Shown in pieces: positions 3,881 to 49,232 of a DNA stretch of 64,000 bases. Each line of letters begins with the position of its first letter. Position 1 is the first letter of the stretch. Under the pieces are notes generated by a model, which had not been told where the DNA came from, did not search any database, and was given only the letters and a program-made list of their open reading frames with translations. The translations under genes were made by a program, and so were the position numbers. Origin of the DNA: Giardia intestinalis (lineage: Eukaryota); NCBI GenBank assembly GCA_000002435.2, contig CM018791.1, one strand, 5' to 3'.

Positions 3881-4082
3881 AGAGCAATAGATTTTACGAG
3901 GATTGCTGGAGATATTATTTCGCCAAAATTAAAGTAACAATAATTCTTGTTTCTTGCAGCTATCTCTTGTAAATTCTTTGCTTGAAACATTGAAGAAAGA
4001 AAATAAGTAAATCTACAGCGCCACAAAATATTCCACTGTAGATATACTTTTTACATATTTTTTAGTTTACAGGACAAAAAGA

Positions 4083-9278: not shown

Positions 9279-9475
9279 CATTCTTGTAAATACCTTCTTT
9301 TGATTAGAAGCCTTGCGCTTGTTGTCTGCACGTCCAAGACCGGACATGGGCTCCAAAAGTTCATCTTAGTCAGATCTCTTTGGTCTCGCAGTATGTGTAT
9401 TATGATACCGTTCTAATAGAGAGACGACTCCAACTAGGAGGCAGATGGGACGGATTTAAGTGACGAAGAAAAAAC

Positions 9476-30149: not shown

Positions 30150-30764
30150 TTACGAGATCGCAGAAGCAACAGGAGGAGAGAGCATTCGGGCTAGTTCCGG
30201 TTCACAGAGCTTTATTGCTCGGTCGATCCTCTCATTGAATGTTTCTTCTATGGTCACGGCTCCAGAGGCGGAGTACAAGCGGATGCCCATTACATCTTCT
30301 GGAAGCGATTCCGTGGAGGACAACGTTACAGTATGACAAAACTGCCTACCGACAATATAGTTTCTGACATGATCTGAATCACATGCACGCGAAACCAAAA
30401 CGCAATCATCACCAAGAGTATCTATAGATTCCTGAATGATGCTGCAAAGTGCTGTGTAATAAGCTGGAGTGCGATCAATCTGCTTGAGGCTTGTTTTAGC
30501 GGCATCTCGCACCCTATCAATTATACCTTGAACGGCCTCTGCCATGCGAAAGGTACGCGTGATTTCAAGGCGAGAGATCTGGGAGGCACGGTCTTCCTCG
30601 AGGCTTCGGCGTTTTTCACAAAGTAGCTCCTCCACGCGCTCACGGTCAGCACGCTTCTGCGCCCGCGAGGCAATGAATCCCCGCATGGCGATTTCCGCAC
30701 GCGTCTCAAAGACAAGGCTGTCATGCTCGGAGATCGTCGCGTACAGCGAACCTGCGGTAATCAT
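30150..30764 (-). CDS. Probable V-type ATPase subunit E.
   Basis: 204 aa. N-terminal charged helix (QKRADRERVEELLCEKRRSLEE...). The C-terminal segment SLPEDVMGIRLYSASGAVTIEETFNERIDRAIKLCEPELARML aligns with the subunit E end ([42 protein letters not shown]). AGTAAAC signal ~17 nt past the stop. Confidence 0.55.
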   Translation of the reverse strand: MITAGSLYATISEHDSLVFETRAEIAMRGFIASRAQKRADRERVEELLCEKRRSLEEDRASQISRLEITRTFRMAEAVQGIIDRVRDAAKTSLKQIDRTPAYYTALCSIIQESIDTLGDDCVLVSRACDSDHVRNYIVGRQFCHTVTLSSTESLPEDVMGIRLYSASGAVTIEETFNERIDRAIKLCEPELARMLSPPVASAIS

Positions 30765-30784
30765 AAATCTAAATTAAGGGAGAA

Positions 30785-30791
30785 ATTCACT
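30785..30791 (-). terminator. Poly(A) signal AGTGAAT 5 nt downstream of the alpha-tubulin TAA stop.
   Basis: Reverse complement of plus-strand attcact. Confidence 0.5.
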
Positions 30792-30794
30792 CGC

Positions 30795-32159
30795 TTAGTA
30801 GGCGTCGTCCTCCTCCATGTCCTCGCCCTCGCCGTCGCCAAGGGTCTCGGCGCCGATCTCCTCGTAGTCCTTCTCGAGGGCGGCGAGGTCCTCGCGGGCC
30901 TCGGAGAACTCGCCCTCCTCCATGCCCTCACCGACGTACCAGTGCACGAAGGCGCGCTTGGCGTACATCAGATCGAACTTGTGGTCCATGCGGGACCAGA
31001 CCTCGGCGATGGCCGTCGTGTTGGAGATCATGAGGCAGGAGCGCTGGACCTTCGCAAGGTCGCCGCCGGGGATGACGGTCGGGGGCTGGTAGTTGATGCC
31101 GACCTTGAAGCCTGTCGGGCACCAGTCGACGAACTGGATCGTGCGCTTCGTCTTGATGACCGCGATGGCCGCGTTGACGTCCTTCGGGACGACGTCGCCG
31201 CGGTACATCATGCAGCACGCCATGTACTTGCCGTGGCGGGGGTCGCACTTGACCATCATGTTCGCCGGCTCGAAGACGGAGTTGGTGAGCTCGGCGACGG
31301 AGAGCTTCTCGTGGTACGCCTTCTCGGACGAGATGATGGGCGCGTACGAGCAGAGCGGGAAGTGGATGCGCGGGTACGGGACGAGGTTCGTCTGGAACTC
31401 CGTCAGGTCGACGTTGAGGGCGCCGTCGAAGCGGAGCGAGGCCGTGATCGAGGAGATGCACTGGGCGATCAGGCGGTTGAGGTTCGTGTATGTCGGGCGC
31501 TCGATGTCGAGGTTGCGGCGGCAGATGTCGTACATGGCCTCGTTGTCGACCATGAAGGCGCAGTCGGAGTGCTCAAGCATCGAGTGCGCGGCGAGGATCG
31601 TGTTGTACGGCTCGACGACGGCCGTCGCGATCTGGGGCGAGGGGTAGACGACGAACTCGAGCTTGGACTTGCGGCCGTAGTCGACGCTCAGGCGCTCGAG
31701 GAAGAGGGACCCGAAGCCGGCGCCCGTGCCTCCTCCGAAGGAGTGGAAGATCAGGAAGCCCTGGAGCCCGGAGCAGTTGTCTGCGAGCTTGCGGACGCGG
31801 TCGAGGACGAGGTCGACGATCTCCTTGCCGATCGTGTAGTGCCCGCGGGCGTAGTTGTTGGCGGCGTCCTCCTTGCCAGAGATCAGCTGCTCGGGGTGGT
31901 AGAGCTGGCGGTACGAGCCCGCGCGGACCTCGTCGACGACCGTGGGCTCGAGGTCAACGAAGACCGCGCGCGGGACGTGCTTGCCGGCGCCCGTCTCCGA
32001 GAAGAACGTGTTGAACGCGTCGTCGCCGCCCCCGATCGTCTTGTCGGACGGCATCTGGCCGTCGTGCTGGATCCCGTGCTCGAGGCAGTAGAGCTCCCAG
32101 CAGGCGTTGCCGATCTGGACTCCGGCCTGGCCGATGTGGACCGAGATGCACTCACGCAT
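30795..32159 (-). CDS. Alpha-tubulin.
   Basis: [30 protein letters not shown]..., [10 protein letters not shown], ...[25 protein letters not shown]..., acidic tail ending Y. 454 aa. GC-rich codon usage. AGTGAAT 5 nt past the TAA stop. Confidence 0.97.
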
Positions 32160-32466
32160 TTTTATTTCCGCCCGTCCAGACTCTGGAATTTGGCTGATTT
32201 AAATTTAAAATGATTTTAATCAGGCCCCAGAACGATCTCTCAACTTTCCTTATGATGCGTTTCAGTGCACAATCTTCGCATTCTGCCGGCACTCTGTCAC
32301 TCTCAACATTTCAGAACTGGCTCAAAAGACCAATCTCAATATAATTTTTTTAAGAGAAGAAAACTTAGTGCTCTTTGTGCCGCTGCGTCATTGCATTCTA
32401 GAATGATCAGTGACTCCTTACCAGGTCTTTTGGATTACTCGGTTAATTCAAAAATATACATTACAA

Positions 32467-34665
32467 ATGTCTTTGCTTGAAGATCAATCCTCATCATGCG
32501 TTCATGCGTCTGCGAAGCCCGCAGTCCCAGAGCGCGTTGGGCAGCGCTTCGCAGTTATCAACATGGTGTCCAAGTATGAGACGCAAGCAGGCCCCCAGCT
32601 AACGGATACCGTCGAAACGTTTGCTGGCAGTGAAATAAGCTTCCATGTGAAGCCATATATTCATGCAGTAGCACAAGGCAATGCATCACAGTTACCACAA
32701 TCACCCTCTCAACGGGAGTCGAGCCTAGGAGAGGCTCTTTTTAACCTCTCCTCGGCGCGGGCTCGCGACTCAGACTCAGAATGGGATGCAAACTTTATTC
32801 AACTGGAGCCCATGGCAGATGCTCAGAGCAAGCTGTCTTCCTGCAGCAGCTGTCTGCTACCTATTCTACCTTACAAGTTAAAGAATGAGAAGGCCAGCGT
32901 TCTCTATGACAGACTAAGACTAGCATCATACAGTGGTTCATCTGCAAGCCAGAAGAGCCGAAAGTATTACGTGTGGATGTCTCAGCTCATGGTTGCCCAT
33001 CATGGACCGATCTGGACATCCGAGTTCTCTCGAGATATGTCATTCTTTGCTACTGCAGGCCAGAACGGGTTTGTTAAAATATGGAAATACATAAATAAAG
33101 CACAGGTACACGTAGAACCATGTAAGCCATCGCTTGATGTCTCCACTCTCACCCATGTCAAGAAGCCTGAGCTTCTTTCACCCATTTGTGAGAGTCCCTC
33201 CAAGGAAAACCTATCTCAGTACATTGGTTCACCAGTTCTGAACCACTCTTCTAAGCTCTCTACACGCAGGTTATCCAAGGCTGCCGAAGCAGAAGCCAGC
33301 AGTGCAGCTAACGTGCCAAATAACCTGATACCTATACTGGAACCTTTGGATTGCAAGGACGAGAACTTTGATGACGAGAGTGCTAGCTCTCTTACAGACG
33401 AAAAGCCATATGAGATTGTTACTAGATCACAATCACAGTTGCAAGAGGGAGGTACATCTCCATTTAATTCTGTTATAAAGTTTAGACCCTCAAAGGCTCA
33501 ATTTTCTCAACTCTCTCAGACCGTTTCTCAGCACTCTACCCTGTGCTGTAAAGATGCTCCATCTAATAAGCCCTCAATAGACGCTCAGTCTCTGACTTCG
33601 GACAAACTGATAATGGATTTTTCCAACAGGCAATCCGCACTAGACAATAATCGTATCCCGTTTTTTCTGCCAGCCATAAGGGTATTTAAAGGACACATCG
33701 CAGACGTGATCTCGTGCTCCTGGTCGAAAAGTAACTTCTTAGCCACAGGCTCCCTGGACAAGACTGTTAAGATATGGAGCCCAATCAAGGGCTCCTGTTT
33801 AGAGATTTTGACCCATAACTCACCTGTCACGTGTGTCCTATTTCATCCTCTTCACGAACAGTTTTTGTACACAGGTACAAGTGCTGGCGATGTGTACCAG
33901 TGGGATGTCATTGGAAAGCGCAAGGTTTCCTGGACTGCCCCGCAAATGGTAACGAGCATAGCCTTTACAAAGAATAAGTTTTCTCCGCCCACAGGCGTCA
34001 TAATCGTAGGGACTGCCCATGGAAAAATATATATACTAGGTGCAGACACGTTGCGGCCCATCTATGAGTTCCAAACATATACCGTACAGCACAGGAAACA
34101 GACCAGCATCCCAGCCCCAAGGGTCCTGGCTTTGTCTGTCATTGATGAAACAAACGAATTGCTGGTGTCCACAGCAGACTCTCAAATTAAGCGGTATTGT
34201 TTACTCTCAATGCTGCAGACCAGAAAGTACAAGGCACACACAATATCTGGAATTTTTGGGGCAGCTATTCCCCGGATTCTGGCCTTAAGTGATTCAAAGG
34301 AGTCCACTCACGAGAAAACATATGAAGAAGACATCAGTCGCTTTCTTATCATCGGAGATGACAAGGGGTCTATTTGCATGTATCCTGACGAGTCCCCTGC
34401 TTCTGGACGATTAAGATCAGGTGCCTCTAAAAATTTCATCGGTATATCTAGTCACGAGAAGCTATCAAAACAGAGAGTCTATACAACACAAGGTACGGAC
34501 ACGGCAAGATCGTGCCTTAAGATCAACCTTCCGTCCAAGACTGTATGCACTACAATCAATGTCGTCCAGAGCAATCAGCATGTAACTGGTATACAGGGTG
34601 ATGCAAGAAAGAGCTCCATAGTGGTCACCACTGCGAACGGATCAGTGATATGCATCGACATTTGA
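32467..34665 (+). CDS. WD40-repeat protein. The track start at 32410 is a GTG; the first ATG is at 32467, preceded by aaaaatatacattacaaATG.
   Basis: Several WD repeats (LATGSLDKTVKIWSP; LYTGTSAGDVYQWDV). Confidence 0.55.
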   Translation: MSLLEDQSSSCVHASAKPAVPERVGQRFAVINMVSKYETQAGPQLTDTVETFAGSEISFHVKPYIHAVAQGNASQLPQSPSQRESSLGEALFNLSSARARDSDSEWDANFIQLEPMADAQSKLSSCSSCLLPILPYKLKNEKASVLYDRLRLASYSGSSASQKSRKYYVWMSQLMVAHHGPIWTSEFSRDMSFFATAGQNGFVKIWKYINKAQVHVEPCKPSLDVSTLTHVKKPELLSPICESPSKENLSQYIGSPVLNHSSKLSTRRLSKAAEAEASSAANVPNNLIPILEPLDCKDENFDDESASSLTDEKPYEIVTRSQSQLQEGGTSPFNSVIKFRPSKAQFSQLSQTVSQHSTLCCKDAPSNKPSIDAQSLTSDKLIMDFSNRQSALDNNRIPFFLPAIRVFKGHIADVISCSWSKSNFLATGSLDKTVKIWSPIKGSCLEILTHNSPVTCVLFHPLHEQFLYTGTSAGDVYQWDVIGKRKVSWTAPQMVTSIAFTKNKFSPPTGVIIVGTAHGKIYILGADTLRPIYEFQTYTVQHRKQTSIPAPRVLALSVIDETNELLVSTADSQIKRYCLLSMLQTRKYKAHTISGIFGAAIPRILALSDSKESTHEKTYEEDISRFLIIGDDKGSICMYPDESPASGRLRSGASKNFIGISSHEKLSKQRVYTTQGTDTARSCLKINLPSKTVCTTINVVQSNQHVTGIQGDARKSSIVVTTANGSVICIDI

Positions 34666-35681: not shown

Positions 35682-38132
35682 ATGGCCATTGTGTGCGTTA
35701 ATCAGATGCTTTCTGATATAGATGTTGACGCTTCTGCACTTTATTCTCGAACTATTTCTGTAGATGGGCTGCCAGACACCATGAAAGACGGCGTCCTCTT
35801 TACCTGGGCCAAATATTTATTCAATAAAGAAGATCAAAGCGCAATCAACCACGCGCTACCATTCTTGCTTTCGCTAAAAACTGCAACCATGGATGAGAAC
35901 AGATACCTGATTAGGCTACGGTACCGTTTCTCCAGAGGGGTACCTTTGGAGGCAGTTGTAGCACATCATATCAAATTAGGAACCTATGTGAGTGAGGACA
36001 TCATCGTGTATCTGGCTCGCGTGGTCTTAGCTGATATGAGCATCGGGATGGAGTACAATCTTCTCTACGGATTAAGCCAAAAAGCTGTTCTAGTAGATCA
36101 GAACTTTGATAAATTCATATACACCGTCTACGCCCCTGTCAGCATCGTTAGTGAAGGTGCTTCAAGTACCAAAGATCATAATTCAATTGTCAATCCAATC
36201 ACCAAAAAGCAATTAATAGAATATAGTGTATCAAATTTAGGGGCCTTGTTATTCGAACTTTGCACTCTATCGTCGAAAGGCACAGCTGAGCATACCTTAG
36301 ACCCGACGATTCTTCTGGAGTGTACCGATAGATTGTGTGGCTGTGGATACTCCAGAGTCCTGGCGACATTTATTATTAGCTGTCTTACCTTTCCGCATTC
36401 TATTGATTTGGCCGGGACAACCTCGGGGTTTTCTTTCAGTTCTTTTGGAGATGCCATATCAGCAATAGATGCCGTCACGAAGACAGCTGCCCGTGGCACA
36501 GCTTGCAGTACAGATGAGTCTTTTCCTGATACAGCACACAGAACGATACCTACAACTTTATGTTCAGAACCTGGTGCTGCACAATCTGACAATAGTGAGC
36601 AGAGCCGTGAACAGGAGCGAAGTGTGATTCAGAGCCTGATAGCCTCCCAGAGCATTAAGTGCCTTGCAGAACACGTTACAACAGAATCTGGGGCCTCAAT
36701 ACTGTCATCTATCTTAGAAGATAAGTTAATTTTAGCCAAAAAACAATATACACCAGAGTTGGCGACTATCGTTCAAGCATGTGTCACAGATAGAGACCTC
36801 TGTATCCGCGTCAACGCGAGGAATCCTGATCTGTCACCAATCAGAACGTACTTAATTTCTGCAGCACAGAAAGGTGACGTTAAAGCACTCTTGAAAAACT
36901 ATAATGAAATAGGGTTTATCTATGGAAAATACACGGCCCTGATGGAGGCTGCTCGAAGAAACAATCTCCACGTGATCCCCTTCCTACTAGGTGAGCTGGG
37001 ATGCGTTAACACTACTGGCCAAACTGCGCTGATGCTGGCAGCACACTTTAACAACGTTGAAGCTGTAAAGCTCCTTCTCATGGAAGCAGGCATTGCTGAC
37101 AATTGGGGGACAACTGCTCTAATGATGGCATGCATGAGGGGCCACGACACGATAGTGGAACTCTTGCTACCAGAGAGTCGAAGGCAGGACGAATGGGGCA
37201 ACACAGCCATGATATACGCAGCCCAGAACGGGCACCTGGATTGCGTCAAGCTGCTACTTTCAAGAGAAATCAAGATGGTTACCAAAATTTCAAGCACTGC
37301 ACTTTCGCAAGCCATGATGTGTGGTCACAAGGATTGTGCATGTGTACTGCAGGCAGAAGAGCAGATGTCCAATATTACTCCCTTAATGCGCTCTGTCTTC
37401 TTCAACGAGTGTGAAGGGGCGTTAGCTCAAAGTATCAAAGAGTGTGCAGACACTGTTTCCTATGCAAACAAGGCGGGCTTTACAGCGATAATGTTTGCCG
37501 CTGCAGGCCACAACTGGGATGCTGTGAATCTCCTCTTGCCATATGAGGCACAGCACTCACCAGACTTGGCTGGTCTTTACACTAAGAACGTAGATGAAGC
37601 AGCCTGTAGTTTCTTTTCAGAGGCTGTGCAAGGGAGATACATCCATCTGGTCTTTGTCTTTGCAACTTATTTGCACTACCTTCTTGAGCACGGAAAGATA
37701 GATGCGTTCAAGCAGAAGTGCGACTCTGGCATCTTGCATGCATGGTCGGGCATACCAGTTCTGCACCGCACAGGCCTAATGGAATGTGCAAAGCGTGGGG
37801 ATGTAATAGGGGTACGGGCATCTCGAGAAGACTATTGTAAGGTTTTTGACGGCTACACGGCCCTGATGTTAGGAATCATCAATCGTATGGCAATTTGCTC
37901 TCGTCTGTTACTTGTGGAAATGGGGATCCAGGGAGCTGAGGGAATGACGGCACTTATGCATGCAGTAGACAGCGGGCAAGTAGATCTTGTTTCTCTCTTA
38001 CTCGCAGAAGCACCAATCAAGAATGCAGCTGGGGACACAGCCCTTGATATAGCCAGGCGGCGAGCAAAGAGTCACCCTCCAGACTCACCCTATAATCAAT
38101 GCGTCTCCATGCTGCTCAGTTTTCAGTGGTAG
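35682..38132 (+). CDS. Ankyrin-repeat protein of the Giardia Protein 21.1 family, with a possibly degenerate kinase-like N-terminal region.
   Basis: Multiple 33-aa ankyrin repeats (TALMEAARRNNLHVIPFLL; TALMLAAHFNNVEAVKLLL; TALMMACMRGHDTIVELLL; TAMIYAAQNGHLDCVKLLL; TALMHAVDSGQVDLVSLLL). ATG after the AT-rich leader caacgtttttaaATG. Confidence 0.8.
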   Translation: MAIVCVNQMLSDIDVDASALYSRTISVDGLPDTMKDGVLFTWAKYLFNKEDQSAINHALPFLLSLKTATMDENRYLIRLRYRFSRGVPLEAVVAHHIKLGTYVSEDIIVYLARVVLADMSIGMEYNLLYGLSQKAVLVDQNFDKFIYTVYAPVSIVSEGASSTKDHNSIVNPITKKQLIEYSVSNLGALLFELCTLSSKGTAEHTLDPTILLECTDRLCGCGYSRVLATFIISCLTFPHSIDLAGTTSGFSFSSFGDAISAIDAVTKTAARGTACSTDESFPDTAHRTIPTTLCSEPGAAQSDNSEQSREQERSVIQSLIASQSIKCLAEHVTTESGASILSSILEDKLILAKKQYTPELATIVQACVTDRDLCIRVNARNPDLSPIRTYLISAAQKGDVKALLKNYNEIGFIYGKYTALMEAARRNNLHVIPFLLGELGCVNTTGQTALMLAAHFNNVEAVKLLLMEAGIADNWGTTALMMACMRGHDTIVELLLPESRRQDEWGNTAMIYAAQNGHLDCVKLLLSREIKMVTKISSTALSQAMMCGHKDCACVLQAEEQMSNITPLMRSVFFNECEGALAQSIKECADTVSYANKAGFTAIMFAAAGHNWDAVNLLLPYEAQHSPDLAGLYTKNVDEAACSFFSEAVQGRYIHLVFVFATYLHYLLEHGKIDAFKQKCDSGILHAWSGIPVLHRTGLMECAKRGDVIGVRASREDYCKVFDGYTALMLGIINRMAICSRLLLVEMGIQGAEGMTALMHAVDSGQVDLVSLLLAEAPIKNAAGDTALDIARRRAKSHPPDSPYNQCVSMLLSFQW

Positions 38133-38186
38133 ATTAGTCAGTCTGCAAAGAACTTGTAAACTTTAGCTAAACTATTTAAAAAGGAA

Positions 38187-41100
38187 ATGACCCGACGCCA
38201 CCAGGCCGACACGGGAACCGCGGACTACACGCAGTACAGACAGGAATTCCCAGAGATTCCATTCGACAGGTACAAGATAACGCAGCACGTAGGGAAGGGC
38301 GCGTTCTCAAAAGTTTTCTTGGCCTATACACCAGAGTTCCAAAGGCGTGCCATCAAGCGCATCAGATTGACAGCCAAACCGCACCAGCTCCTCAAGGAAA
38401 TAGAGTTTCTCCGTCGATTGGAGGGGAAGTCGCATATCGTGCAAATCAAAGAAATTCGCTTCTCTGACGCCACGCTGCAAACAACCGTCATCACTTCCTA
38501 CTCAGACACGGATGATTTCAAGTCTGTTATACTGGACTTCACCCCAAGAGAAATCCAGGCCTATATGCGCTCCATTTTGACTGCCCTCTCTCATCTAGAG
38601 AAATTGAAAATAATACATCGTGATATAAAGCCTGGCAATTTCCTCTTTGAGCGAAAAACAGGAAAAGGGCTGCTTATTGATTTTGGCCTCGCCCAAACGC
38701 TACGCGAGGTCCGAGAGTTTCCGCTTCTCCGAGGCCAGTCGAAGTCGCGCAAGGGTGTCATACACATTAACTTAGACCGTCTTATGCGTCAAAGCAATCA
38801 GTATCTGACCGACCTGACAGCCCAGGGAGAGGAGACATACTACACTGCGCGCATGTCTCTCAAAGAAGGACAGACAGTACCGGCTGCACATGTCACAGGC
38901 TCGAATGCTGCCGCATCAACGAATGTTGTTCGACCCAATGACGACACGGCTGAGCGACTTCCCATAGCGGGCTACATAAACAAGGATCATTCAACCTTCC
39001 GCCCGCTTCCACCATCGGCACATAGTGGAACTCACGGGTACAGAGCGCCTGAGATCCTTGTTCCAGTTCGAAACCAGGATTGTAAGATTGATAGCTGGAG
39101 TGTCGGTGTTATTCTTATACAGATCCTGACGGGGAAAACGTCGCTTTTCCGTGGCAATCCGACTGTGGATATTTATGAGATCCTGGCTATTCGCTCGATA
39201 ATTGGAACAGACAGGTTCATTCAGGGCATGTCCAGGCTCAAGGCTGACTTTAGTCTCACAGCTGGTGCTCCGATGCCGCAAGCTATCGCCCTGGAAGAGC
39301 TTGCTGAATGGTATAATCCGGATCTCCTGGCAGTACTGCCTGCTTCCTGCTTTGATCTGTGCAGGAAGCTGCTTGAGTTTGATCCTGAAAGCCGACTAAG
39401 TGCAACAGAGGCTCTTTCACACCCCTTCCTCGCCATGGACGAAAACCTACTTCCTAATTACCGCTTCCAGGATGGCGCCCACAGCAAGAGCCTTTTAAGT
39501 TTTACAGGATATGCCAATGCAACGAACAGTCAGGACAGCATGAACCGTGAGGAGGAGACTCTGCAGGCTCTTCGTAAACGCGGAAGTGAGATCGCTGAGC
39601 GACTCGGTCTTTGCCGCGTGACTTCCGAGACCTTAGCCGATGAATATTCCACCATGTCGCCACAGTCTATGATCCCTCTACCCCGTGACTTGAGAAAGCA
39701 AGCTATGAAATCAGTCCAAAAGTTTGCCTTGGATAAGACAGTACAGGGGCCGTCTGGGATTATTGTAGAACGCTCAAAGACAAGCGACTACAGCTTCCCG
39801 AGCAATTCTTCGGTGCAAGACCTTTCCTCGTGCGGGGGCGTGACATTGAGCCGTCCGCGTCTTGCCGCAGCCCCTGGTAGCCATGCAAGACACTGTGCAA
39901 TTGATGCAGCGATGCGGCAGAAGATAGCATATTACAAGGAGAAGGGCATCAGGGTTACCCTGGATGATCTACATCGAGAGGTGCTTGACCAACAATGGGA
40001 GATAGCAAACAAGGACAAGGAGACCTTCGAACGCGCTGTGCGTGCTACAGCAGTGCGACGAAGACTGGATCCGTGGGTTCAGCCTCTTAAAGCCTTAGAT
40101 AAAGAGCTCAGGATCTGCCAGAAGGATGTGCGGAAGGCTGCTGAAGAATATCGACGAACCGTTCTCTCTCTTGGTATTATAGATCTGGAAACCAAGACCG
40201 CCGATGAAGGCCACCGCCACAAAGTTTCTGCCGGACTGGACGGCGACAAGGACAAGCTAGATGCAAAGAACGAGCAAGGACGCACTCAACTTTCTGGTGC
40301 AACTGGAATTACTGTTACTGGGCAGGGGGCAGGAGCTTTCACAAACTATCACAGTTATTTGTCGGCTCTTATTCCGTCCCCGAATGCTCTTAAGACAGCT
40401 GTGAATATAAAGCTCGCATCAGATGCCAAGATTCAAGTTGCGAAGACTATGGACGTAAAAACAGTGGAGTCTTTCTATTATCCGAAGTACTATGCCATCA
40501 ATAAGATTAGAACGCATCGCCTGCTTAATTTTATCGTCAAGTCTGAGCTGGCGCAGACTGCAGCCCTTGACACTGGGAATAGTGTTGGAGTTGCAGGCGT
40601 GACCACCTGCACAAACCATCTGACTAAGACCCTTGCAACTGTGATAGCTACGAAAGCATGGGAAGTTGTTCACTCCAATTCTTCCAAGAATATGATCACT
40701 AAGGAGAAGTCCCGGTCAGTATACGACTTGACAATGAAGGCTGCCAAGATCGCCAGTGTTTCTCATCGCCTTGCACTATCTGGCCCTGATGCATGGGAAG
40801 CAAAGGGAGAGTCCTTCTTCTTGTCACCTAATTCTCGATTAGGGATGATAGAGATCAAAGCTGATGAGTGCAAGTTTCGTGTCCACGACTTTAACACAAA
40901 GATCCTTCAACATCAGCATCACGCTTCCCAGTGCCAATTTATCATTCAGGAGCGCACAGGTTTCCTCAGTAAGATAGCACAGCTTGAAGAGTCCATAAGG
41001 AGCAAAATGAACGCAAATACAGAACAGATTAAGATTTTGCAAGGTACTCTGAAGTCGTCTGCCAATAAGAACGACACAATTCAGGAGGAGATAAACTATC

Positions 41101-43280
41101 TTACGGCTCAGAAAGAACAGCAGGAGGCGGCCATCTCCAAGTTTGTAGCGGTCGTTGCTGACAATAAAACGCTCATTGCTCAACATAAGGAAAGCTACGC
41201 AAATCTTACTTCCGAACTTTCAGTAATGATTGCAAACAAAAATGAATGGGTGAAGGAATACAAGCAAATATATGAGCGGGATATAAAGGATGCTGACTAC
41301 TCCTTTGGGGAGGAACATGAGCACCTTCTTGAGAACTTTTCAGATTGCTGGAGCGAGACCATTTCTGTGAGTGACGAGGGAGTTGAGGCACGACCTGCAT
41401 TCAAGCCATTTGGAGTGTATAATCCTTCGGAGCTCCAAGAACCATACTTCACCTCCATGGACGAGATGAAGACAGCTCTAAGGCAGCAGGATGCCGCAAT
41501 GGACCGACGAAAGAGCAGAAGAGAGCAGCGTCGTCGGCTAGAGTGTCTGATAGCAAAAAGAAGAGACCCTATTTTAGAGCAGCTTCGTCAAATGAACGAC
41601 GATATCCAGACTGCTCGCGCAGAACTTCTGGACTCAATGATCACTGGAGAAGGAATTTCTCCCGCGCCAACAGACAAAACGGACAAGACTAAGCACAATT
41701 CTTTGATGCCAAAGCAGGCGCTGTCTGTGTCGCCGTCCATGCTCGCACAAGCTGTTGCAATAAAGTCTCTTGCTGCCAAATACGCTACTGTCATGGGCTT
41801 CTTCACTAAACACACACTTAGTGGGGCATACTGTGTTACCTCCACTTTTGAGCCTGGGCGTACTCGACAACCTGCAGAGGTAGGATTGCTAAGTTTCCGA
41901 AACGGAAACATCACTGGAGAGATGCACCAGACTGATGGAGGCGCTAAGCGTGCATCGTCTACCGGTCCTAATTCACGCGGCAATACAACTGTCGCCGGAA
42001 TGTCTACAAATGCATCCATTAATCCCAATGCAAATAGAGGGTCTGCAGGAGGTTTATCCAATGATAATAAGCAGCTTCATGCTCTTAAACCTTATGCTCG
42101 GAATGCCCTTGCTTACATTTCACAACAACTGGAGGTTGAGCGAAAGGCGCATGCCTTACTTACGCTGATATCATCTCCCTATGGACGTTATCTAATGCCT
42201 TTCCATAAAATACTATCGGACGGGGCACCGTTCCCCAGTGGAGCTCGGTCGAACTCCTTTTATATTATGTGTTCAAAGAGTGATCTATTTATTCCAGCAG
42301 AGCTCCAGGAAGCCATCTTAACGCTGCAGAATCTTTCGGAACGCTATTTCCGCACATCTATTGGTCGTAAAGACCTTTATCTAATTGCAGCAGCTTGTCA
42401 GACTGAACTGGATCTGCGAGCCCAAAATGCGACCAACACTAATAATCCCAATAATGCCAATAATGAACTTCAGCACCTTGGATTGAGCAGGAGGCCTCCA
42501 AACTTGGATTACATGCTTCTTTTGCAAGGGAAGCTAAACAACTTGATCCCTTATTTTGAGGACACCCGCTCTACGTCTGCCATCTCCGGTCTTAATAAAA
42601 GCGCCACGCACCGATCTCTTGCTGACCCCGGCAGGACGTCGCAGCGCTACCCCCAGACCTGCAAGTACATCCAGACCATCCTGGAGCAGGTGATGCGCCG
42701 CTTTGTGGCGATGCCCGGGGTCCTTTCGGGCCTTTATGAGGAGTGCATTGAGGGCATCAGCAACATCAAGGGCCGCATCCTGGAGGCCGTCGTCATAGAG
42801 CTGATCAATATCCTGCAGACCGGGTCCACTGAAAATGTCGATAGGGTTCGCGGCGGCTGCTCCTTCTACGAAAATAACGTGATGCTCCTGCGCTGCCTCC
42901 GCCTGCTCCAGACCGCCATAAACACGCTGGGTGCCGGGACAGTCTTTGAGATACTGCGCGGCCTTGTCTACCCCGTGACTCTTTTGCGCGGCAGCGGCTT
43001 CATCAATGGGGTGGAGAAGACTCAGAAGCCGGTGGCTGAGTCTGACAGCCCAGACAAGAAGCCTCGGAGGTTCAACTACCTGACAGAAGAGGATGTCAAG
43101 AGCGTCGCCAAGATGGTGTCCAAGCCAGAGAACATTACCGGGAGCTTCGACGCATCGCTGCTGCAGAAGATAGACGATAGCAATGCGCGCAGGCGTCTGC
43201 TTCTACAGACACAGTACGGCGGCCGCCATCACCTCAATGCAATAAGACAGCGCAGGCGTCGTGCCGAGATATACTTCTAA
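38187..43280 (+). CDS. CDC7-like Ser/Thr protein kinase (N-terminal ~430 aa) fused to a ~1250-aa C-terminal extension with coiled-coil and low-complexity segments.
   Basis: IIHRDIKPGNFLF and LIDFGLAQ (compare CDC7 IVHRDVKPSNFLY / VDFGLAQ). Large kinase insert before GTHGYRAPEIL. DSWSVGVIL. Terminal LLEFDPESRLSATEALSHPFLA. The ORF continues uninterrupted to 43280. AGTGAAT overlaps the stop. Confidence 0.8.
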   Translation: MTRRHQADTGTADYTQYRQEFPEIPFDRYKITQHVGKGAFSKVFLAYTPEFQRRAIKRIRLTAKPHQLLKEIEFLRRLEGKSHIVQIKEIRFSDATLQTTVITSYSDTDDFKSVILDFTPREIQAYMRSILTALSHLEKLKIIHRDIKPGNFLFERKTGKGLLIDFGLAQTLREVREFPLLRGQSKSRKGVIHINLDRLMRQSNQYLTDLTAQGEETYYTARMSLKEGQTVPAAHVTGSNAAASTNVVRPNDDTAERLPIAGYINKDHSTFRPLPPSAHSGTHGYRAPEILVPVRNQDCKIDSWSVGVILIQILTGKTSLFRGNPTVDIYEILAIRSIIGTDRFIQGMSRLKADFSLTAGAPMPQAIALEELAEWYNPDLLAVLPASCFDLCRKLLEFDPESRLSATEALSHPFLAMDENLLPNYRFQDGAHSKSLLSFTGYANATNSQDSMNREEETLQALRKRGSEIAERLGLCRVTSETLADEYSTMSPQSMIPLPRDLRKQAMKSVQKFALDKTVQGPSGIIVERSKTSDYSFPSNSSVQDLSSCGGVTLSRPRLAAAPGSHARHCAIDAAMRQKIAYYKEKGIRVTLDDLHREVLDQQWEIANKDKETFERAVRATAVRRRLDPWVQPLKALDKELRICQKDVRKAAEEYRRTVLSLGIIDLETKTADEGHRHKVSAGLDGDKDKLDAKNEQGRTQLSGATGITVTGQGAGAFTNYHSYLSALIPSPNALKTAVNIKLASDAKIQVAKTMDVKTVESFYYPKYYAINKIRTHRLLNFIVKSELAQTAALDTGNSVGVAGVTTCTNHLTKTLATVIATKAWEVVHSNSSKNMITKEKSRSVYDLTMKAAKIASVSHRLALSGPDAWEAKGESFFLSPNSRLGMIEIKADECKFRVHDFNTKILQHQHHASQCQFIIQERTGFLSKIAQLEESIRSKMNANTEQIKILQGTLKSSANKNDTIQEEINYLTAQKEQQEAAISKFVAVVADNKTLIAQHKESYANLTSELSVMIANKNEWVKEYKQIYERDIKDADYSFGEEHEHLLENFSDCWSETISVSDEGVEARPAFKPFGVYNPSELQEPYFTSMDEMKTALRQQDAAMDRRKSRREQRRRLECLIAKRRDPILEQLRQMNDDIQTARAELLDSMITGEGISPAPTDKTDKTKHNSLMPKQALSVSPSMLAQAVAIKSLAAKYATVMGFFTKHTLSGAYCVTSTFEPGRTRQPAEVGLLSFRNGNITGEMHQTDGGAKRASSTGPNSRGNTTVAGMSTNASINPNANRGSAGGLSNDNKQLHALKPYARNALAYISQQLEVERKAHALLTLISSPYGRYLMPFHKILSDGAPFPSGARSNSFYIMCSKSDLFIPAELQEAILTLQNLSERYFRTSIGRKDLYLIAAACQTELDLRAQNATNTNNPNNANNELQHLGLSRRPPNLDYMLLLQGKLNNLIPYFEDTRSTSAISGLNKSATHRSLADPGRTSQRYPQTCKYIQTILEQVMRRFVAMPGVLSGLYEECIEGISNIKGRILEAVVIELINILQTGSTENVDRVRGGCSFYENNVMLLRCLRLLQTAINTLGAGTVFEILRGLVYPVTLLRGSGFINGVEKTQKPVAESDSPDKKPRRFNYLTEEDVKSVAKMVSKPENITGSFDASLLQKIDDSNARRRLLLQTQYGGRHHLNAIRQRRRRAEIYF

Positions 43281-43287
43281 GTGAATG
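43279..43287 (+). terminator. Poly(A) signal AGTGAAT overlapping the TAA stop of the CDC7-like kinase gene.
   Basis: ttcTAAGTGAATgaag. The Giardia AGTRAAY consensus. Confidence 0.5.
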
Positions 43288-43404
43288 AAGCACTTCGTTC
43301 GCCCCCGGGTAGTCCTAGCGATCAAAAAGCTGGTGTGGTGTTGGCCTCGAGTGCAGGTGCTAAGGGGCTATGCAATATACACCAGTGAAAATATTACGTG
43401 GTGG

Positions 43405-46335
43405 TGCTGCTGGGGCCTGCCTGCGGGCGCTGTCCGCAAATCTCGCGAGTAAATTCCCGCTCAATTTTTGGCGATGTCCGGAGACGAGGGTTGGTCGTGT
43501 ATCAATATAAAGACCACAGTGGTGGTAGGGAGGAGCTGTCTGCATTCCTCGGCTGTTCTGCGGGTGTGTGCTCGGTCTAGGTGTGCACATAGGTCCTTTT
43601 GGAGATCAAGCCGTCCTGCAGGCTCGCTGGTCTACTAGGGTGCCTCTTCTTGTTCTCCCTTCACGGTGAGTGAAGCTCAGGTCTTTGTTGTCATTCTCAA
43701 TACTGTCCATACAGATCAGCAGCAGCTAACGGGGCGTTCTCTCCTGGTTGGGATTCCACTCGACTGCGTGTCCAGTCTTGGGCCCCTTCTCGATCGTTGT
43801 CGTCGGGTCCCGGGGATGGGCTCATTCGGTTGTCAGAAGTAGGATGACAGGAGGCGGTCGCTCTGGGTGACCAGGCTTTCGGCCCGGCCCGTCTGATCAG
43901 CTTCGTCGGGTGCTCGTTCGCCTCTGCAGCCATGTGGGCGATGGCGAAGGCAGCCCGGACAGAGAGCTTCTCGACGTCCACGTAGAGCTCCTCGAGGTGC
44001 CTCTTGGACTTGGGGTGGAGGGATCCGTCTGTCTCGTCCCTGTACTTCTTGACCTTCTCGTTGTAGTAGGCATCCATCTGGCGGGGCTGGATGACGCCCA
44101 CATCTATCGCCTTGCACTTGTCGACGAGCCAGATGTCGGGCTTCTGGTTCTGGTCGCTGAGGTGGCTGTGGGTCTTGACCTCCAGCTCTGCGTTGAACTT
44201 CCCTGAGACGCGGAGGTACAGGCACGCGACGATCATGTCGTGCCTCGTGGCAGCCCGGGCAGGTGCCTCTTGTCTGCGCCATGATCGAGCCATCTCTCTC
44301 CTTCAGGGCCCTTTCCTCCTCGGTCAGCACGCCGCCGCTCTGTCCGGAAGCTGGTGTATGCGTGAGGAGGCGGTTGAAGTAGGTCCCTTCCCCTGCAGTG
44401 CCTGGCCTTCCACCGACAGCTCCACCGGGTCTCTGGCTCCCTTGTTGACGTCCGGGGAGGCCCATACCCTCCGCAGCTCGTCGTGGCAGAGCCCCGGCAT
44501 GAGCAGGCCCGGGCCGCCCTTCTCCTTCGGGTACGCCAGGAAGTCGACCAGGCGATCGCAGCTTCTGTTAGTTATTTTGCTGAAGCCTTGTGCGATGTCT
44601 GTCGAGCTCCTCGTAGTCCGCCTTGTCCGATGTTACTTCGACCAGGGGGGCGTAGTTCACCATCGGGACCACACAGAGTGACACCAGGATGAGCTTCTGG
44701 TGGGTGGTTATGGGGGCAGTCTCAGCACCTGCGATGGCCTTCGGCGCGGGACTGGCAGGGGTGGGGGACACCGGGTGGTTGAGGAAGGTCACCTCCTCGC
44801 CCGCCATGGTGGACTTGCATTTGTCGCTCCTGATCGTCAGGCCCATGGTCTGCTGTGTTATCGCGCCTGCCGGGTAGGCCTCGTCGTGGAGCGTCACGAT
44901 GTCGTCCGCTAGGCAAGGAAGGTGATGCCCCTCTCCCTGAGGCGTCTCAGAGGCGCTCGGTAGCCATGCAGAAGAGGAACATGCTGAGCGGGTCGCCCTG
45001 GGGGACGCCGCAGACCTCGCACTTCACGTCCCGGCTGTGCCTCAGGTCGAGGAAGTTCCTGATGTAGTCGACCAGGACCTTCGGGACGCCCGCCTCGTTC
45101 AGGGCTCTGACGACCTCCGCCCTTGGGAGCGAGTTGAAGGCCTTCTTTGTGTCGAGGGAGACGGCGTGCATCCCCGGCCTGCTGATGAGCTCGTGGGCCC
45201 TCCTCACGCCTACCGCGTATGCGTTCTGCATGAAGGCGATCTGTTCGCACGAGAGGTAGTTGGCATGCTTGATCAGCCGCTTCAGCAGGACGCGGTGGAA
45301 GATGTTTGTCACCGTCTTGCCTATCGCGATCGGACGGTATCCGTCGGACTCCTTCGGGATGAGGATCGCCCGGAACTCGAACATGGCCGTCACCTCGGGC
45401 ATCGCCTCGGGGTGGGTGGTCAGCTCGTTGTACGCCTGCGTGAGGTACTTCACGAAGCTATCGTTCTGCTTCATCGCTTTGAGCTGGACCGGCCCGAGAC
45501 CAGACAGGCCTTGTTGAGGGTTCCAAACAGGACCTTCCTCATTTCTTCTTCGGTTGCCACTCCAGCCCCGTCGAGCTCATCGATGGAGGGCAGTCAAGGC
45601 CAACGTGGCCTTTGGGAGGACGCACGGGTGTCTCATCAAGGGCGCGGAGGGCCTTGGCAACTGCTCCGAAGCTCAGCGCGTTGTTCACCCTATTTGGAGC
45701 GGTGTCTCCTTCTGGGTCTGCTATGCTGTGCTGCTTGCTCCGGGCCTCCTACCAGGGTGTTCAGGCCCTTGTTAACGAGGAGCGCGACCCCAGTCCCGGC
45801 CTGCTCGATGCTCGCGATCATGCGCGCACCCTGGTGGATGAGCATGGCAAGCTCTGTCTGGTTCGGTATATGGGATGGAATGATCAGTTTGTCGTCGCCT
45901 AGCATTCTGTGTCTGTCATCGTTTGCTTCTCTCAGGTGCTCGGTCAGTTGCTTGGCGCTCTCGCACGGTAGGCCACAGAGCCAGCGTGTGTGTCCTGCTG
46001 AGAGAGTAAATGTCTTCGGAGTGGTCTCCCAAGTAGAGACTCACGGCTTGCTCTCTGGGTGTCCCTGAGGTACGATTTTGCATTCGTAGTGCAGATCTGG
46101 TCCTCGCGGGCTCTCCTTCGCCTCAGGTCCAGCTGTGCTCACGCCCGTAGAACAGCCGTGGAACGCACAGACCCCAGATCCACACGTGGAGGGAACCCCT
46201 CTTTGCCCCCGCTGTGGTTATCGTTGCAACCCGCGGCCAACCCTCATCTCCGGACTGGCTGGGAATTGAGCAAGAGTTTACCCGTGAGACCTCTGGACCA
46301 TACCTGCAGACAGGCCTCAGCGGCACACCACTGGA
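43405..46335 (-). mobile_element. Degenerate copy of an RLE-clade (R2-like) non-LTR retrotransposon in minus orientation, truncated at both ends relative to the second copy. Compatible with a Giardia GilD/GilM/GilT-type element, but the family is not determinable here.
   Basis: Reverse-transcriptase motifs in fragmented frames (RPIAIGKTVTNIFHRVL; SLDTKKAFNSL; GVPQGDPLSMFLF; LADDIVTL). C-terminal CCHC and PD-(D/E)xK endonuclease remnants (CPGCH..., KPDIWLVDKCKAIDVGV). Translated ORFs identical to the copy at 54.7-57.7 kb. GC-rich. Confidence 0.75.
44947..45474 (-). pseudogene. Reverse-transcriptase fragment (motifs 1-5) of the minus-orientation retroelement copy. Frame is broken on both sides.
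   Basis: 175-aa ORF MKQNDSFVKYL...RPIAIG...SLDTKKAFNSL...GVPQGDPLSMFLFCMATERL. The YxDD-equivalent LADDIVTL continues in another frame (44568..44897). Confidence 0.7.
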
Positions 46336-47030
46336 AGCAACCGGTGGATGGAGTGAATGTGTCCATGAGCAGAAGGGCGGGCCGGGCGTCTCTTCCGCAC
46401 CAACCAGGGATCGACCTGGGGGTCCACGGGCACACGCTACAGTCCAGGAGGACACATGGTGAGCGCACCCCGACGGCAGGATCGATGGTCCACTCCACGA
46501 GGAGGCGAGAAGGAACCCGAGTAGACATTCCAAGGCCATGACACATGCGACCTTCATCATGTAGCACCGAGCGACTCTGGACTACATGCAGGGATCATTG
46601 CTGCCAGGGCCAGATCGTTGCAACTGACAATAGGGCCTTGGGGTAGCGGTGCTTACCAGGTGTCAGGCAGCAGCCGACCCCCACAGAAGTTGAACGAAGG
46701 AAAGGAGAAGCCCTTGGAAGGCACTGCGAAGAACATGCAGTGACCCCGAAGGGCGAGGAGGCATAGGGGTCTTCTCTCGCTAGAGTTAGATGGCACCTGA
46801 GTGAAAGACCCTCTTGGTGAAATGGCAACTCGCATGAAGGACTTACTCAAGCAGCAGCTAATAAACTAGCTTCGGTGACACAGGGTAAATTTCATAAATC
46901 AAGATTTGTTTTATAGTATTTTGGCACGGGCTGGGAATGTGAGGTACTCCTCTTGTAAAGTCTATCTTCCAGAGTTCTTTGCTCCTTTTGAAGAGACACG
47001 ATAGGTTTACTTGTGAGGTCACAAAGCAGT

Positions 47031-49232
47031 CTAAGGATCATTATGACCATCGACACCAAGTGTACTACTGCTGCTAAGGAGAGACAATATTTCGGAATAG
47101 CCCCTAGTCTCAAGCTCACTAAAAAAGAACTTGTTAGATTTGTCTACTAGGTGTCCCTCCTTTTCAAATAGCAGTTTTACTATTTCTAAGTGGCCAGTAA
47201 ATGCTGCATACATGATAGCAAGCATACCATAATTGTCCTCCATACCGTTTTCATACTTCATTAGCAGTTCTACTATTTCTAAGTGGCTATTAAGTGCTGC
47301 ATACATGAGAGCAGTCTTATTTTTACTATCTTTCATTCCAGCCTCACACCCCAGCAATAGTCTTACTACCTCCAGATAGCCATCAGAGGCCGCCCTCATA
47401 AGGGCTGTTACGCCATTGAGGTCCTTCATAGTGCTCTCACGGTTCATTAGCATTTTCACTATCTCTAAGTGCCCCCTAGATGCGGCCTCCATGAAAGCAG
47501 TTGTTCCAAAAACATCTTGTGCACAACTTTCATGGTCTATTAGTAGTCTTGCTACCTCTGTGTGGCCGCCTATTGCTGCTCGCATTAATGCCGTGACACC
47601 AAATTCATCGGTTGGCTCAAGAATATCCATAACAATTTTGTGCCCTGCATCCCTAGCAATCGTCAGGGCCGTATTACCTTCGTTGTCGACTAGGTCCCTC
47701 TCGTACGGGATCAAAATGGAGGCAGTTTCTGCGCTACCATTCTCTGCAGCGATCATTAGGGCAGTCCAGCTACTGTTATTCCTCTTTCCATGCTCATGAG
47801 GGACGAGAATTTCAACTACCTCAGGGTGGTTGCTGTGTGCGGCGTGCATGAGTGCAGTCCAGCCATTCTTGTCTCTGAAGCCATTCTCCTCCTCAACAAG
47901 CAGCTTGACAGGACCGATGTGCCCCTGCTGGGCTGCGTGCATGAGGGCCGTCATCTTCTGCTCATCGCGCTGACCAATATTGAATCCCTCGTTGACCAAG
48001 GTCCAAACGGCCTCCATGTCATTCGTGTGTGCAGCACGTATCAGCCTAGGGAGCAAGAGGAGATTGAACTGAGAGTTGGATGTAGCTAATCCAGTGCTAA
48101 GTTGTGCGATTCTATTTTCTAGTACTCTTATTATGGCTAGGTACTCTTTATCCCGATCTTCAAGCGCATCAATCCTGGTGAATTTAATTCGAGGCTCCTG
48201 TCCCAAACTGTCGATTTTACTTTGCCTACTCTCGAGGGCTGTCTCAAGAGCAGTGATCCTGTCCAATTTGGCCTCCGCATCCGCTTCCAGAAGTGCGATC
48301 CTGGTATTAATATTACTTAGCGCATCCTCCAAGGAGCCGCATTTGCCTTCTAGTACCACTTGCCGAGGTTCTAGCTCACTAACTGGGACGTCGAATGTGG
48401 TGAGCATTTCATACAGCTCCTTGGCTGTCAGTCTTTCCTCAGGATCTAGTACAAATATCCTCTTTAGAATGCCCTTTATGAAGTTACTAGTTACACCGCT
48501 CAGGTCTGGCCTCCACCCGTCGACGAAGACCTTTGCCGGCTCCTCACCCTCCAGGAAGTCCGGTCTCCTCAGAGTTACTAGTTCATAAATGATGACCCCG
48601 AGGCTCCACATGTCGGAAGCATGGCTGGTCTCATTACGGAGGAGAATCTCGGGGGCCATGTACGCCACTCCCATGATAGTGCTCTCACTCCACAGGGCGT
48701 CTATGCAGAGGCTAAGGCCAGCAAGGACGACGTGTTTGTTATCTGCGCTGATGAGGATATTGGTAGGCCTAAGATCGCAGTGAACAAGCTCCTCAACATC
48801 TACCTCACTAACGCTGTGGAGATAGGCGAGGGCGGCAGCGATCTGTTTCACAATGAAGAGGATCACGCTAACAGAGATAAAGTTTCTCTTTCGTTTGTAC
48901 TTGGTGAGAAGACGCTTGAGAGTCTTGTCGTGGCGATCCATGACAATGTAAATGAAGCCCTCGTTCTCAATAATTTGATGGTACCTGAGGATCCCTGGGT
49001 GGGAGAGCTCGGGGAAGGTAATCAGCTCTAGTCTGCTGGCATCCACGCTGCTCCTGTCCAGATGATCGAGGATGATCTCCTTCACGGCGAGACTCGGATA
49101 GCCCTTGAGGGAGTAGACTGCGCCCGTGATGCTTTCATTAAGCACGTCGTCTATCAGCTCGTGGAGCTCCCTGGGGGTGAACATAGGCACCCTGAGAGCC
49201 ACCGTTGCAGACTCAGATGAAGCAGCGTGCAT
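47031..49232 (-). CDS. NEK-family kinase-like protein with a central coiled-coil and C-terminal ankyrin repeats. Probably catalytically inactive.
   Basis: N-terminal kinase fold with VAIK-like LAVKEI, HCDLRPTNIL in place of HRDLKPxN, AGL in place of DFG, no GxGxxG, and APE present (YMAPEIL). Coiled-coil LEADAEAKLDRITALETALESRQSKIDSL. At least 8 ankyrin repeats (TALMHAAQQGH..., TALMIAAENGS...). ATG after aaaataataaaacgggATG. Confidence 0.75.
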   Translation of the reverse strand: MHAASSESATVALRVPMFTPRELHELIDDVLNESITGAVYSLKGYPSLAVKEIILDHLDRSSVDASRLELITFPELSHPGILRYHQIIENEGFIYIVMDRHDKTLKRLLTKYKRKRNFISVSVILFIVKQIAAALAYLHSVSEVDVEELVHCDLRPTNILISADNKHVVLAGLSLCIDALWSESTIMGVAYMAPEILLRNETSHASDMWSLGVIIYELVTLRRPDFLEGEEPAKVFVDGWRPDLSGVTSNFIKGILKRIFVLDPEERLTAKELYEMLTTFDVPVSELEPRQVVLEGKCGSLEDALSNINTRIALLEADAEAKLDRITALETALESRQSKIDSLGQEPRIKFTRIDALEDRDKEYLAIIRVLENRIAQLSTGLATSNSQFNLLLLPRLIRAAHTNDMEAVWTLVNEGFNIGQRDEQKMTALMHAAQQGHIGPVKLLVEEENGFRDKNGWTALMHAAHSNHPEVVEILVPHEHGKRNNSSWTALMIAAENGSAETASILIPYERDLVDNEGNTALTIARDAGHKIVMDILEPTDEFGVTALMRAAIGGHTEVARLLIDHESCAQDVFGTTAFMEAASRGHLEIVKMLMNRESTMKDLNGVTALMRAASDGYLEVVRLLLGCEAGMKDSKNKTALMYAALNSHLEIVELLMKYENGMEDNYGMLAIMYAAFTGHLEIVKLLFEKEGHLVDKSNKFFFSELETRGYSEILSLLSSSSTLGVDGHNDP

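Follow-up and report, generated by a model that had tools for sequence, protein, structure and literature searches.

We analyzed a 64,000-nucleotide stretch of the Giardia intestinalis genome (assembly GCA_000002435.2, contig CM018791.1; hereafter, the window), in which a single ATG-to-TAA open reading frame (ORF) of 1,697 codons fills exactly positions 38187..43280 of the plus strand. This ORF almost certainly encodes one polypeptide, which combines an intact CDC7-type kinase with a translated, constrained, 1,280-residue C-terminal tail confined to diplomonads and at least Kipferlia. Whether the tail also replaces Dbf4, the separate activating subunit of other CDC7 enzymes, is a less secure matter; the composite picture of a single-chain CDC7 with such a tail that would, in addition, work in a Dbf4-like manner is one that we consider somewhat the better bet.

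The gene and its full length are already public. The complete coding sequence (38187..43280; 1,697 aa, 189.9 kDa), defined by the ORF, by identity to a public protein and by proteomics, translates residue for residue into XP_001705714.1 (UniProt A8BPA7, “Kinase, CDC7”) of G. intestinalis WB, that is, GL50803_112076. This protein is the sole CDC7 of the Giardia kinome (PMC3218828), the Cdc7 ortholog in a survey of metamonad replication genes (PMC8516963, supplementary file 4), and a threonine-gatekeeper CDC7 homolog, with the gatekeeper aligned to CDC7 structures, in a drug-target paper, the only searchable one to give the gene ID in its text, which names it as a possible inhibitor target (PMC5091913). 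Tandem mass tag proteomics lists it with 1,697 aa, 189.9 kDa and a pI of 9.14, and recovered 14 unique peptides, 25–27 peptides and 12–13 % coverage in two experiments (PMC5913674, supplement S1). The searchable literature on GL50803_112076 yielded no discussion of the tail and no phosphoproteome or localization data. The tail is an uncharacterized lineage-specific variant of a known gene, and what is new here is the selection acting on it, its modular anatomy, its phyletic boundary, and its lack of any relative or known domain.

Coding status and identity of the kinase

Sequence and structure matches alike place the kinase domain in the CDC7 family. An earlier model-generated reading of the letters alone (the sequence-only reading) had called the protein a CDC7-like kinase, and all the motifs that it quoted were located: HRDIKPGNFLF (aa 144–154), IDFGLAQ (aa 164–170), GTHGYRAPEIL (aa 281–291), preceded by an insert of ~100 aa, and SATEALSHPFLA (aa 405–416). 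The catalytic set is complete (GKGAFS, 36–41; K57; E71; HRD, 144–146; DFG, 165–167; APE, 287–289) and invariant across 8 diplomonad sequences. The same verdict comes from database comparisons, in which human CDC7 was the top solved-structure match (6ya7, E 3.5e-33), followed by CK2 alpha (E 7e-27), and the named non-fornicate best matches were all CDC7, both for the Giardia protein and for its short relative from Aduncisulcus. Pfam splits the Pkinase domain in two, with the N-terminal piece at aa 29–174, and the alignment to human CDC7 runs in two stretches, aa 22–177 and aa 278–415, which flank the ~100-residue insert; the DFG-to-APE distance is 120 residues, as expected of a CDC7-type insert in the activation segment.

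In window coordinates (all features lie on the plus strand unless stated otherwise), the N-lobe and catalytic loop, with GKGAFS, K57, E71, HRD and DFG, occupy 38262..38717 (aa 26–177), as delimited by Pfam and by alignment to residues 16–172 of human CDC7. The insert, recognized by its spacing and by the alignment gap, follows at 38718..39017 (aa 178–277) and has a variable center, conservation falling to 0.36–0.38 at aa 201–250. The C-lobe (39018..39437, aa 278–417; GTHGYRAPE … SHPFLA) aligns with human CDC7 residues 218–353. Identity across the kinase domain reaches 96 % with G. muris, 87–95 % with three further diplomonads, 79–85 % with Hexamita and 74–76 % with Spironucleus paralog 1, and is just 33–38 % with non-fornicate CDC7. 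Between two G. intestinalis assemblages, the kinase domain is 98.6 % and the tail 94 % identical.

The sequence-only reading had further described one uninterrupted ORF of 5.1 kb, which the 1,697 codons bear out, and a long extension, which is present, although the suggested length of ~1250 aa was too small, the measured value being 1,280 aa. Given the local base frequencies, a frame free of stops would arise by chance with a probability of ~1e-36 over the full ORF and of ~1e-27 over the 1,280 codons of the tail, and no other frame in the region holds an ORF of more than 157 aa. Selection was assessed on DNA with the Nei–Gojobori method, by comparison with an assemblage-B-like G. intestinalis isolate whose ortholog is 94 % identical. 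Synonymous sites are near saturation (proportion of synonymous differences, pS, 0.58–0.77), with nonsynonymous differences (pN) of 0.003–0.11. The resulting ratio of nonsynonymous to synonymous substitution rates (dN/dS) is 0.005 for the kinase domain and 0.016 for the whole tail, within which it ranges from 0.001 (aa 418–670) and 0.002 (aa 1301–1600) through 0.015 (aa 1051–1127) to 0.057 and 0.108 in two linkers (aa 671–850 and aa 1201–1300, respectively), the last value being the highest in the protein. As a benchmark, the adjoining upstream ankyrin-repeat gene shows 71 % protein identity between the same two genomes. Conservation among the 8 diplomonad sequences is continuous through the kinase/tail junction. 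These values point to very strong purifying selection on the tail, on a par with that on the kinase itself, with aa 418–660 constrained like the catalytic domain. Together with the common architecture of the protein across diplomonads, they support a tail that is translated, in agreement with the earlier view, and functional.

Expression signals lie at the two ends of the ORF. Giardia promoters are short AT-rich initiators, and an initiator-type promoter of this kind lies at 38167..38186, just 5' of the start codon (…CTATTTAAAAAGGAA-ATG), in the 55 nt that separate the CDC7 start from the end of the upstream gene. In the start-codon context, TATTTAAAAAGGAA-ATG, the last 20 nt are 80 % A+T and include a 10-nt A/T run, as at other gene starts in the window. 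No internal Met codon of the ORF is preceded by an initiator-like context; at the domain junction the sole Met is M417, and the 20 nt upstream of it are just 40 % A+T. At the other end, the stop codon TAA overlaps a Giardia-type poly(A) signal, AGTGAAT (43278..43286). The consensus for 3'-end polyadenylation of Giardia mRNAs is AGTRAAY, and this is its sole plus-strand match in 38187–43286, with none inside the ORF.

Two deflationary accounts can be weighed against these data. One holds that the long ORF is an artifact, either two merged genes or an untranslated stop-free run behind a CDC7 of normal length. Its appeal lies in the unusual length of the protein and in a proteomics table without peptide positions, but it has to contend with the 1e-27 chance of the stop-free run, a dN/dS of 0.016 at near-saturated synonymous divergence, a kinase-tail fusion kept in more than ten orthologs and paralogs, and conservation that is unbroken at the junction. 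The scenarios named as refuting in the sequence-only reading, namely, termination after the kinase domain and a separate gene initiating at an internal ATG, are similarly unsupported, given the low dN/dS, the lack of an internal poly(A) signal and the lack of initiator-like context at internal Met codons. Selection, the conserved fusion and the signals thus effectively refute the artifact, to which we assign a negligible chance. The other account is that the kinase is not a true CDC7, being instead a misnamed divergent CMGC/CK2-like or lineage-specific enzyme, and that the comparison with Dbf4 is therefore irrelevant. CK2 alpha chains score only ~20 bits below CDC7, the identity to non-fornicate CDC7 is as low as 33–38 %, and the domain is frozen within diplomonads to a degree atypical for CDC7. 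However, human CDC7 leads the structure matches by six orders of magnitude, the match flanks both sides of an insert at a CDC7-specific position, and the named non-fornicate best matches are all CDC7. Two independent published classifications also say CDC7 (PMC3218828, PMC8516963), and a third paper aligned the gatekeeper residue to CDC7 structures (PMC5091913), so that misnaming is very improbable.

Anatomy and phyletic range of the tail

Conservation over the eight diplomonad sequences, combined with the selection profile, divides the tail into conserved modules and variable linkers. The proximal conserved segment (39438..40166, aa 418–660) has a dN/dS of 0.001 and many invariant columns, and carries the motifs LLPNYRFQDG, LGLC..T.ETL..EYS.M…MIPLP and RPRLAAAPG. 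Its first ~15 residues (LLPNYRFQDG) are common to the short CDC7 proteins of other fornicates, and its final part, a basic helical block at aa 606–660 (ERAVR..RRR.DPW.QPLK.LDKELR…AEEYRR), is kept in Kipferlia and in all three Spironucleus paralogs. A polar linker follows (40167..40736, aa 661–850), which differs in length between species and is poorly conserved (0.26–0.46), although still under purifying selection. It leads into a short conserved block (40737..40811, aa 851–875; KAAKIASVSHRLALSGPDAWEAKGE; conservation 0.78), in which S859, H860, R861, A863, G866, P867 and W870 are invariant.

The center of the tail is a coiled coil of approximately aa 882–1052 (40830..41342), identified by PDB profile matches and heptads. 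When the tail profile was compared with the PDB, all 27 matches fell on profile positions 452–625 (aa ~882–1052), and nearly all were coiled-coil or long-helix proteins, including ELKS (E 1.6e-5), gp26, SPC25, sigma-1, myosin and GCN4; the heptad pattern is free of proline at aa 921–975. Next comes an acidic-then-basic block (41337..41567, aa 1051–1127; conservation 0.70–0.76), with the layout NFSDCWSETISVSDEG…ELQEPYF…RRKSRREQRRRLE..AKRRDP, which includes WSETISVSDEG … RRKSRREQRRR and in which W1055, S1056, E1057, S1062, D1063 and E1064, as well as R1108, K1109, R1111, R1112 and E1113, are invariant. The second variable linker (41787..42086, aa 1201–1300; conservation 0.26–0.35) is of low complexity and rich in Ser, Thr, Asn and Gly, with polar residues or Gly at 28 of the 50 positions of aa 1251–1300.

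Beyond this linker lies a conserved C-terminal region that is predicted to be all-helical (42087..42986, aa 1301–1600; dN/dS 0.002) and is marked by the motifs SSPYGRY, CQ.ELDLRAQNA, LGLSRRPPNL, IKGRILE, LGAGTVFEILRG and RSTSAISGL.KSATHRSLADP.RTS.RYPQT.KYIQ. It contains an Asn/Thr-rich stretch, NATNTNNPNNANNE (aa ~1415–1428, 42429–42470), which, despite its low complexity, does not differ between G. intestinalis and G. muris and is replaced by a shorter sequence in other diplomonads. The protein ends in a basic tail (42987..43277, aa 1601–1697; …DDSNARRRLLLQTQYGGRHH…RQRRRRAEIYF) with a net charge of +6 over the last 47 residues, and a motif, ARRR.LL…Y/FGG..H, is retained in Giardia, the three further diplomonads and Spironucleus paralog 1. 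Basic clusters are thus found at aa 1107–1127 and at the C-terminus, and the coiled-coil, Asn/Thr-rich and basic segments announced by the sequence-only reading all have a definite place in the tail. Self-BLAST of the protein revealed no internal repeats. In profile scans of the extension, as recommended in that reading, no Pfam family was found in any of six tail sequences at E <= 10, and the PDB profile returned the coiled coil only.

To delimit the phyletic range, a profile of six tail sequences (aa 418–1600) was compared with 1.84 billion representative proteins at E <= 0.001. It returned only 21 matches. The named ones are all from fornicates (G. muris, Spironucleus, Hexamita and Kipferlia KIPB_010927); the remainder are mostly short metagenome fragments, together with two low-scoring coiled-coil proteins that represent noise. 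No free-standing homolog of the tail was present among these 1.84 billion proteins, and the tail-only search recovers full-length kinase-plus-tail proteins. All G. intestinalis assemblages have versions of 1,695–1,702 aa; G. muris GMRT_10351 (1,700 aa) has a tail 64 % identical over 100 % of its length; and three further diplomonads, known from metagenomes or read archives, encode kinase-plus-tail proteins of 1,744–1,760 aa. Spironucleus salmonicida possesses three CDC7 paralogs, of 1,348 (SS50377_16552), 1,090 and 853 aa, with progressively eroded tails; two of the paralogs (P0018 and P0043) are located on one 1.88-Mb contig. In Kipferlia, the partial protein KIPB_010927 includes the proximal part of the tail. 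The layout that the sequence-only reading proposed to look for in other assemblages and in Spironucleus is therefore conserved in both.

In Hexamita, the annotation divides the ortholog into two genes (P0007 and P0010), at 4001–7759 and 8951–9562 of its contig, separated between “…PNLEY” and “LLQIHG…” by ~1.1 kb without Ns, which could be an intron, an insertion or the sign of a disrupted copy. The second part has in-frame TAA/TAG codons, which fits the alternative genetic code of hexamitids.

A profile of aa 1–670 additionally finds “Kinase, CDC7” of Aduncisulcus paluster (406 aa, genome) and the ortholog of the Carpediemonas-like NY0171 (409 aa, transcriptome), and the last search for CDC7 homologs returned only Aduncisulcus-like and non-fornicate short CDC7 proteins. 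In the fetched non-fornicate relatives in which the match reaches the end of the domain, the protein stops 0–13 residues later, with the sole exception of an apparent fusion model with a methyltransferase domain (P0058). A kinase domain at the extreme C-terminus is thus the pattern of the fetched relatives, from which the Giardia protein, with 1,280 aa to follow, differs, and because of this pattern we judge the C-terminal extension to be a real departure from the family. The tail appears to have been acquired by the common ancestor of Kipferlia and diplomonads or to have disappeared from the Aduncisulcus lineage; either way, the earlier suggestion of a lineage-specific extension holds, the tail being absent from Aduncisulcus, NY0171 and non-fornicate CDC7. 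In Aduncisulcus, the gene next to CDC7 (998–2312 of the Aduncisulcus contig), 360 bp downstream on the same strand, is cyclin-like (2671–3497; weak match to Pfam PF08613), and no tail homolog was found in that position.

A tentative role of the tail in place of Dbf4

Canonical CDC7, as in the human and yeast Dbf4-dependent kinase (DDK; structures 4F99 and 6YA7), does not extend past the kinase domain and depends on a separate Dbf4/Drf1 subunit, a fast-evolving protein of short motifs: N (BRCT-like), M and the zinc-finger motif C (CCHH; Pfam zf-DBF). Without Dbf4, CDC7 is normally of no use, and origin firing is timed by controlling the level of Dbf4 through the cell cycle; Giardia, for its part, makes do with reduced machinery for replication and the cell cycle. 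The published survey lists Cdc7 and no Dbf4 for Giardia (assemblages A and B), G. muris, Kipferlia, Spironucleus, Trepomonas and Carpediemonas, and finds Dbf4 in no metamonad except Trichomonas vaginalis (PMC8516963), in keeping with the missing Dbf4-type activator presumed in the sequence-only reading.

Given that fornicate genomes lack a listed Dbf4 and that other CDC7 proteins end at the domain, the tail would most likely act in cis, supplying what Dbf4/Drf1 supplies in trans. In such a mechanism, clamping and activation of the kinase lobes would fall to the proximal segment (aa 418–660) and dimerization of the enzyme to the coiled coil, and the helical and basic modules farther along the tail would direct the enzyme to its substrates, presumably chromatin-bound MCM2-7. 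The proximal segment is frozen like the catalytic core and is kept in every paralog and in Kipferlia, as one would expect if it packed against the kinase. Dimerization and targeting are plausible roles for the coiled coil and for the helical and basic modules distal to it. The near-freezing of the kinase domain within diplomonads invites a related idea, that it may reflect a surface mostly engaged by the protein's own tail. We advance the Dbf4-like cis mechanism tentatively, the odds being rather against it, and the broader proposal, that diplomonads and Kipferlia have a single-chain DDK, in which the tail would have taken over activation and targeting with no separate subunit, is possible but doubtful.

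Several observations weigh against this proposal. Dbf4 is rarely detected outside plants and opisthokonts according to the survey (PMC8516963), and since it is hard to detect, its absence may be a failure of detection; furthermore, Carpediemonas and other metamonads are also without Dbf4 in that survey (PMC8516963), so that the absence is not specific to the tail-bearing lineages. No zf-DBF was found in the whole protein (Pfam, E <= 1) or in the six tails (E <= 10), neither a CxxC pair nor a CxxC…H…H pattern exists in the tail, no Dbf4 chain is among the PDB profile matches at E <= 10, and Dbf4 motifs N and M have no Pfam or PDB sequence match outside the coiled coil. AlphaFold2 modeling of aa 1–670 from a 7-sequence alignment gave a mean predicted local distance difference test score (pLDDT) of 38, with a poor kinase domain too and helices at pLDDT 73–81 only around aa 570–600, and the model of aa 1296–1697 from 9 sequences was a low-confidence all-helical one (pLDDT 55). 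Proteomics lists the 190-kDa protein in a table that gives no peptide positions, and we found no functional study in the searchable literature that ties GL50803_112076 to Giardia replication.

The most serious competing explanation is that the tail has nothing to do with activation and serves as a scaffold or localization module, anchoring or dimerizing the kinase at some structure peculiar to the lineage (chromatin, basal bodies, spindle poles or other cytoskeleton, for example), while activation would come from a divergent, undetected Dbf4-like factor in trans or constitutive activity would make an activator unnecessary. The only recognizable element of the tail, a coiled coil of ~170 residues, is a typical scaffold or dimerization feature; long variable linkers separate the conserved blocks; the Dbf4 motifs are missing from the tail, and Dbf4 itself is called hard to detect by the survey authors (PMC8516963); and the Spironucleus paralogs lost much of the distal tail and kept the kinase, as expected of modular targeting domains. 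Such a tether would not, however, readily account for aa 418–660, which are as constrained as the catalytic domain (dN/dS 0.001) and retained in every paralog and in Kipferlia, a pattern that intimate coupling to the kinase fits better, and localization data that could speak for it were not found in the searchable literature. We consider a pure scaffold possible, if on balance unlikely. A different kind of explanation concerns origin: CDC7 may have fused, in the ancestor of Kipferlia and diplomonads, with a once independent gene, for example, for a replication or checkpoint factor, whose function was retained. The tail is modular, its length far exceeds that of typical domain accretions, other fornicates have short CDC7 proteins, and the tail starts just past LLPD.R, the ancestral C-terminal motif of the short forms, yet no stand-alone precursor is visible among the 1.84 billion representative proteins, and such a fusion is improbable; it is compatible with either an activator or a scaffold function.

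Because CDC7 needs Dbf4 and Giardia has no recognizable Dbf4, this large, extremely constrained and lineage-restricted tail is the obvious place to look for how the Giardia enzyme is activated and targeted. Should the tail be a cis activator, S-phase timing in Giardia would follow a different logic, through regulation of the whole 190-kDa protein or intramolecular release, and the parasite-specific tail/kinase interface would offer an angle for selective drugs against a kinase whose small gatekeeper residue has already been singled out (PMC5091913). Should it be a scaffold only, the tail would represent routine lineage-specific domain accretion on an annotated gene.

Genomic surroundings and comparison with known CDC7 enzymes

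Upstream of CDC7, the window contains genes for a WD40 protein (32410–34665) and for an ankyrin-repeat protein of the Giardia “protein 21.1” type (35682–38132); downstream, on the minus strand, is a gene for a kinase-plus-ankyrin protein of the NEK type (47031–49232). An ankyrin gene is likewise immediately upstream of CDC7 on the assemblage-B-like contig, and in G. muris two small genes stand between CDC7 and a WD40 gene located ~2 kb upstream. Immediately after CDC7, a stretch of ~3.7 kb (43300–47030) has a GC content of 55–63 %, compared with ~49 % in the gene. Its ORFs, which occur on both strands, are all short and overlapping, and the one at 44947–45474 (minus strand) matches Pfam RVT_1 (E 4e-15); this region looks like the remnant of a decayed retrotransposon lacking long terminal repeats. 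Elsewhere, ORFs of 496 aa (30723–32213, plus strand) and 454 aa (30795–32159, minus strand) overlap almost completely on opposite strands. No structured RNAs were found by Rfam over the whole window.

Among known CDC7 enzymes, proteins above the usual 500–600 aa also occur in Mucoromycota, where CDC7-like proteins measure 777–1,187 aa. In those of Rhizopus and Choanephora (935–1,187 aa), the surplus is at the N-terminus, and 3–10 residues follow the domain; for those of Podila and Mortierella, the BLAST match covers only part of the kinase domain. Outside the clade that bears the tail, the nearest relatives are the short fornicate proteins of Aduncisulcus and NY0171, which share 49–60 % kinase-domain identity with the Giardia protein, the position of the insert, and the LLPD.R motif just after the domain, but end 26–27 residues past it. 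Within the clade, the orthologs of G. muris, S. salmonicida, H. inflata and Kipferlia have the same architecture and the same conserved blocks as the G. intestinalis protein, whereas much of the linkers is missing in hexamitids and, unlike in Giardia, the distal domains are eroded in Spironucleus paralogs 2 and 3. With respect to DDK itself, the Giardia kinase domain is closest to human CDC7 and displays the KPGNFL and GT.G.RAPE signatures and the large insert between DFG and APE; it differs in the 1,280 residues that continue past the domain, a tail in which no Dbf4 motif is found.

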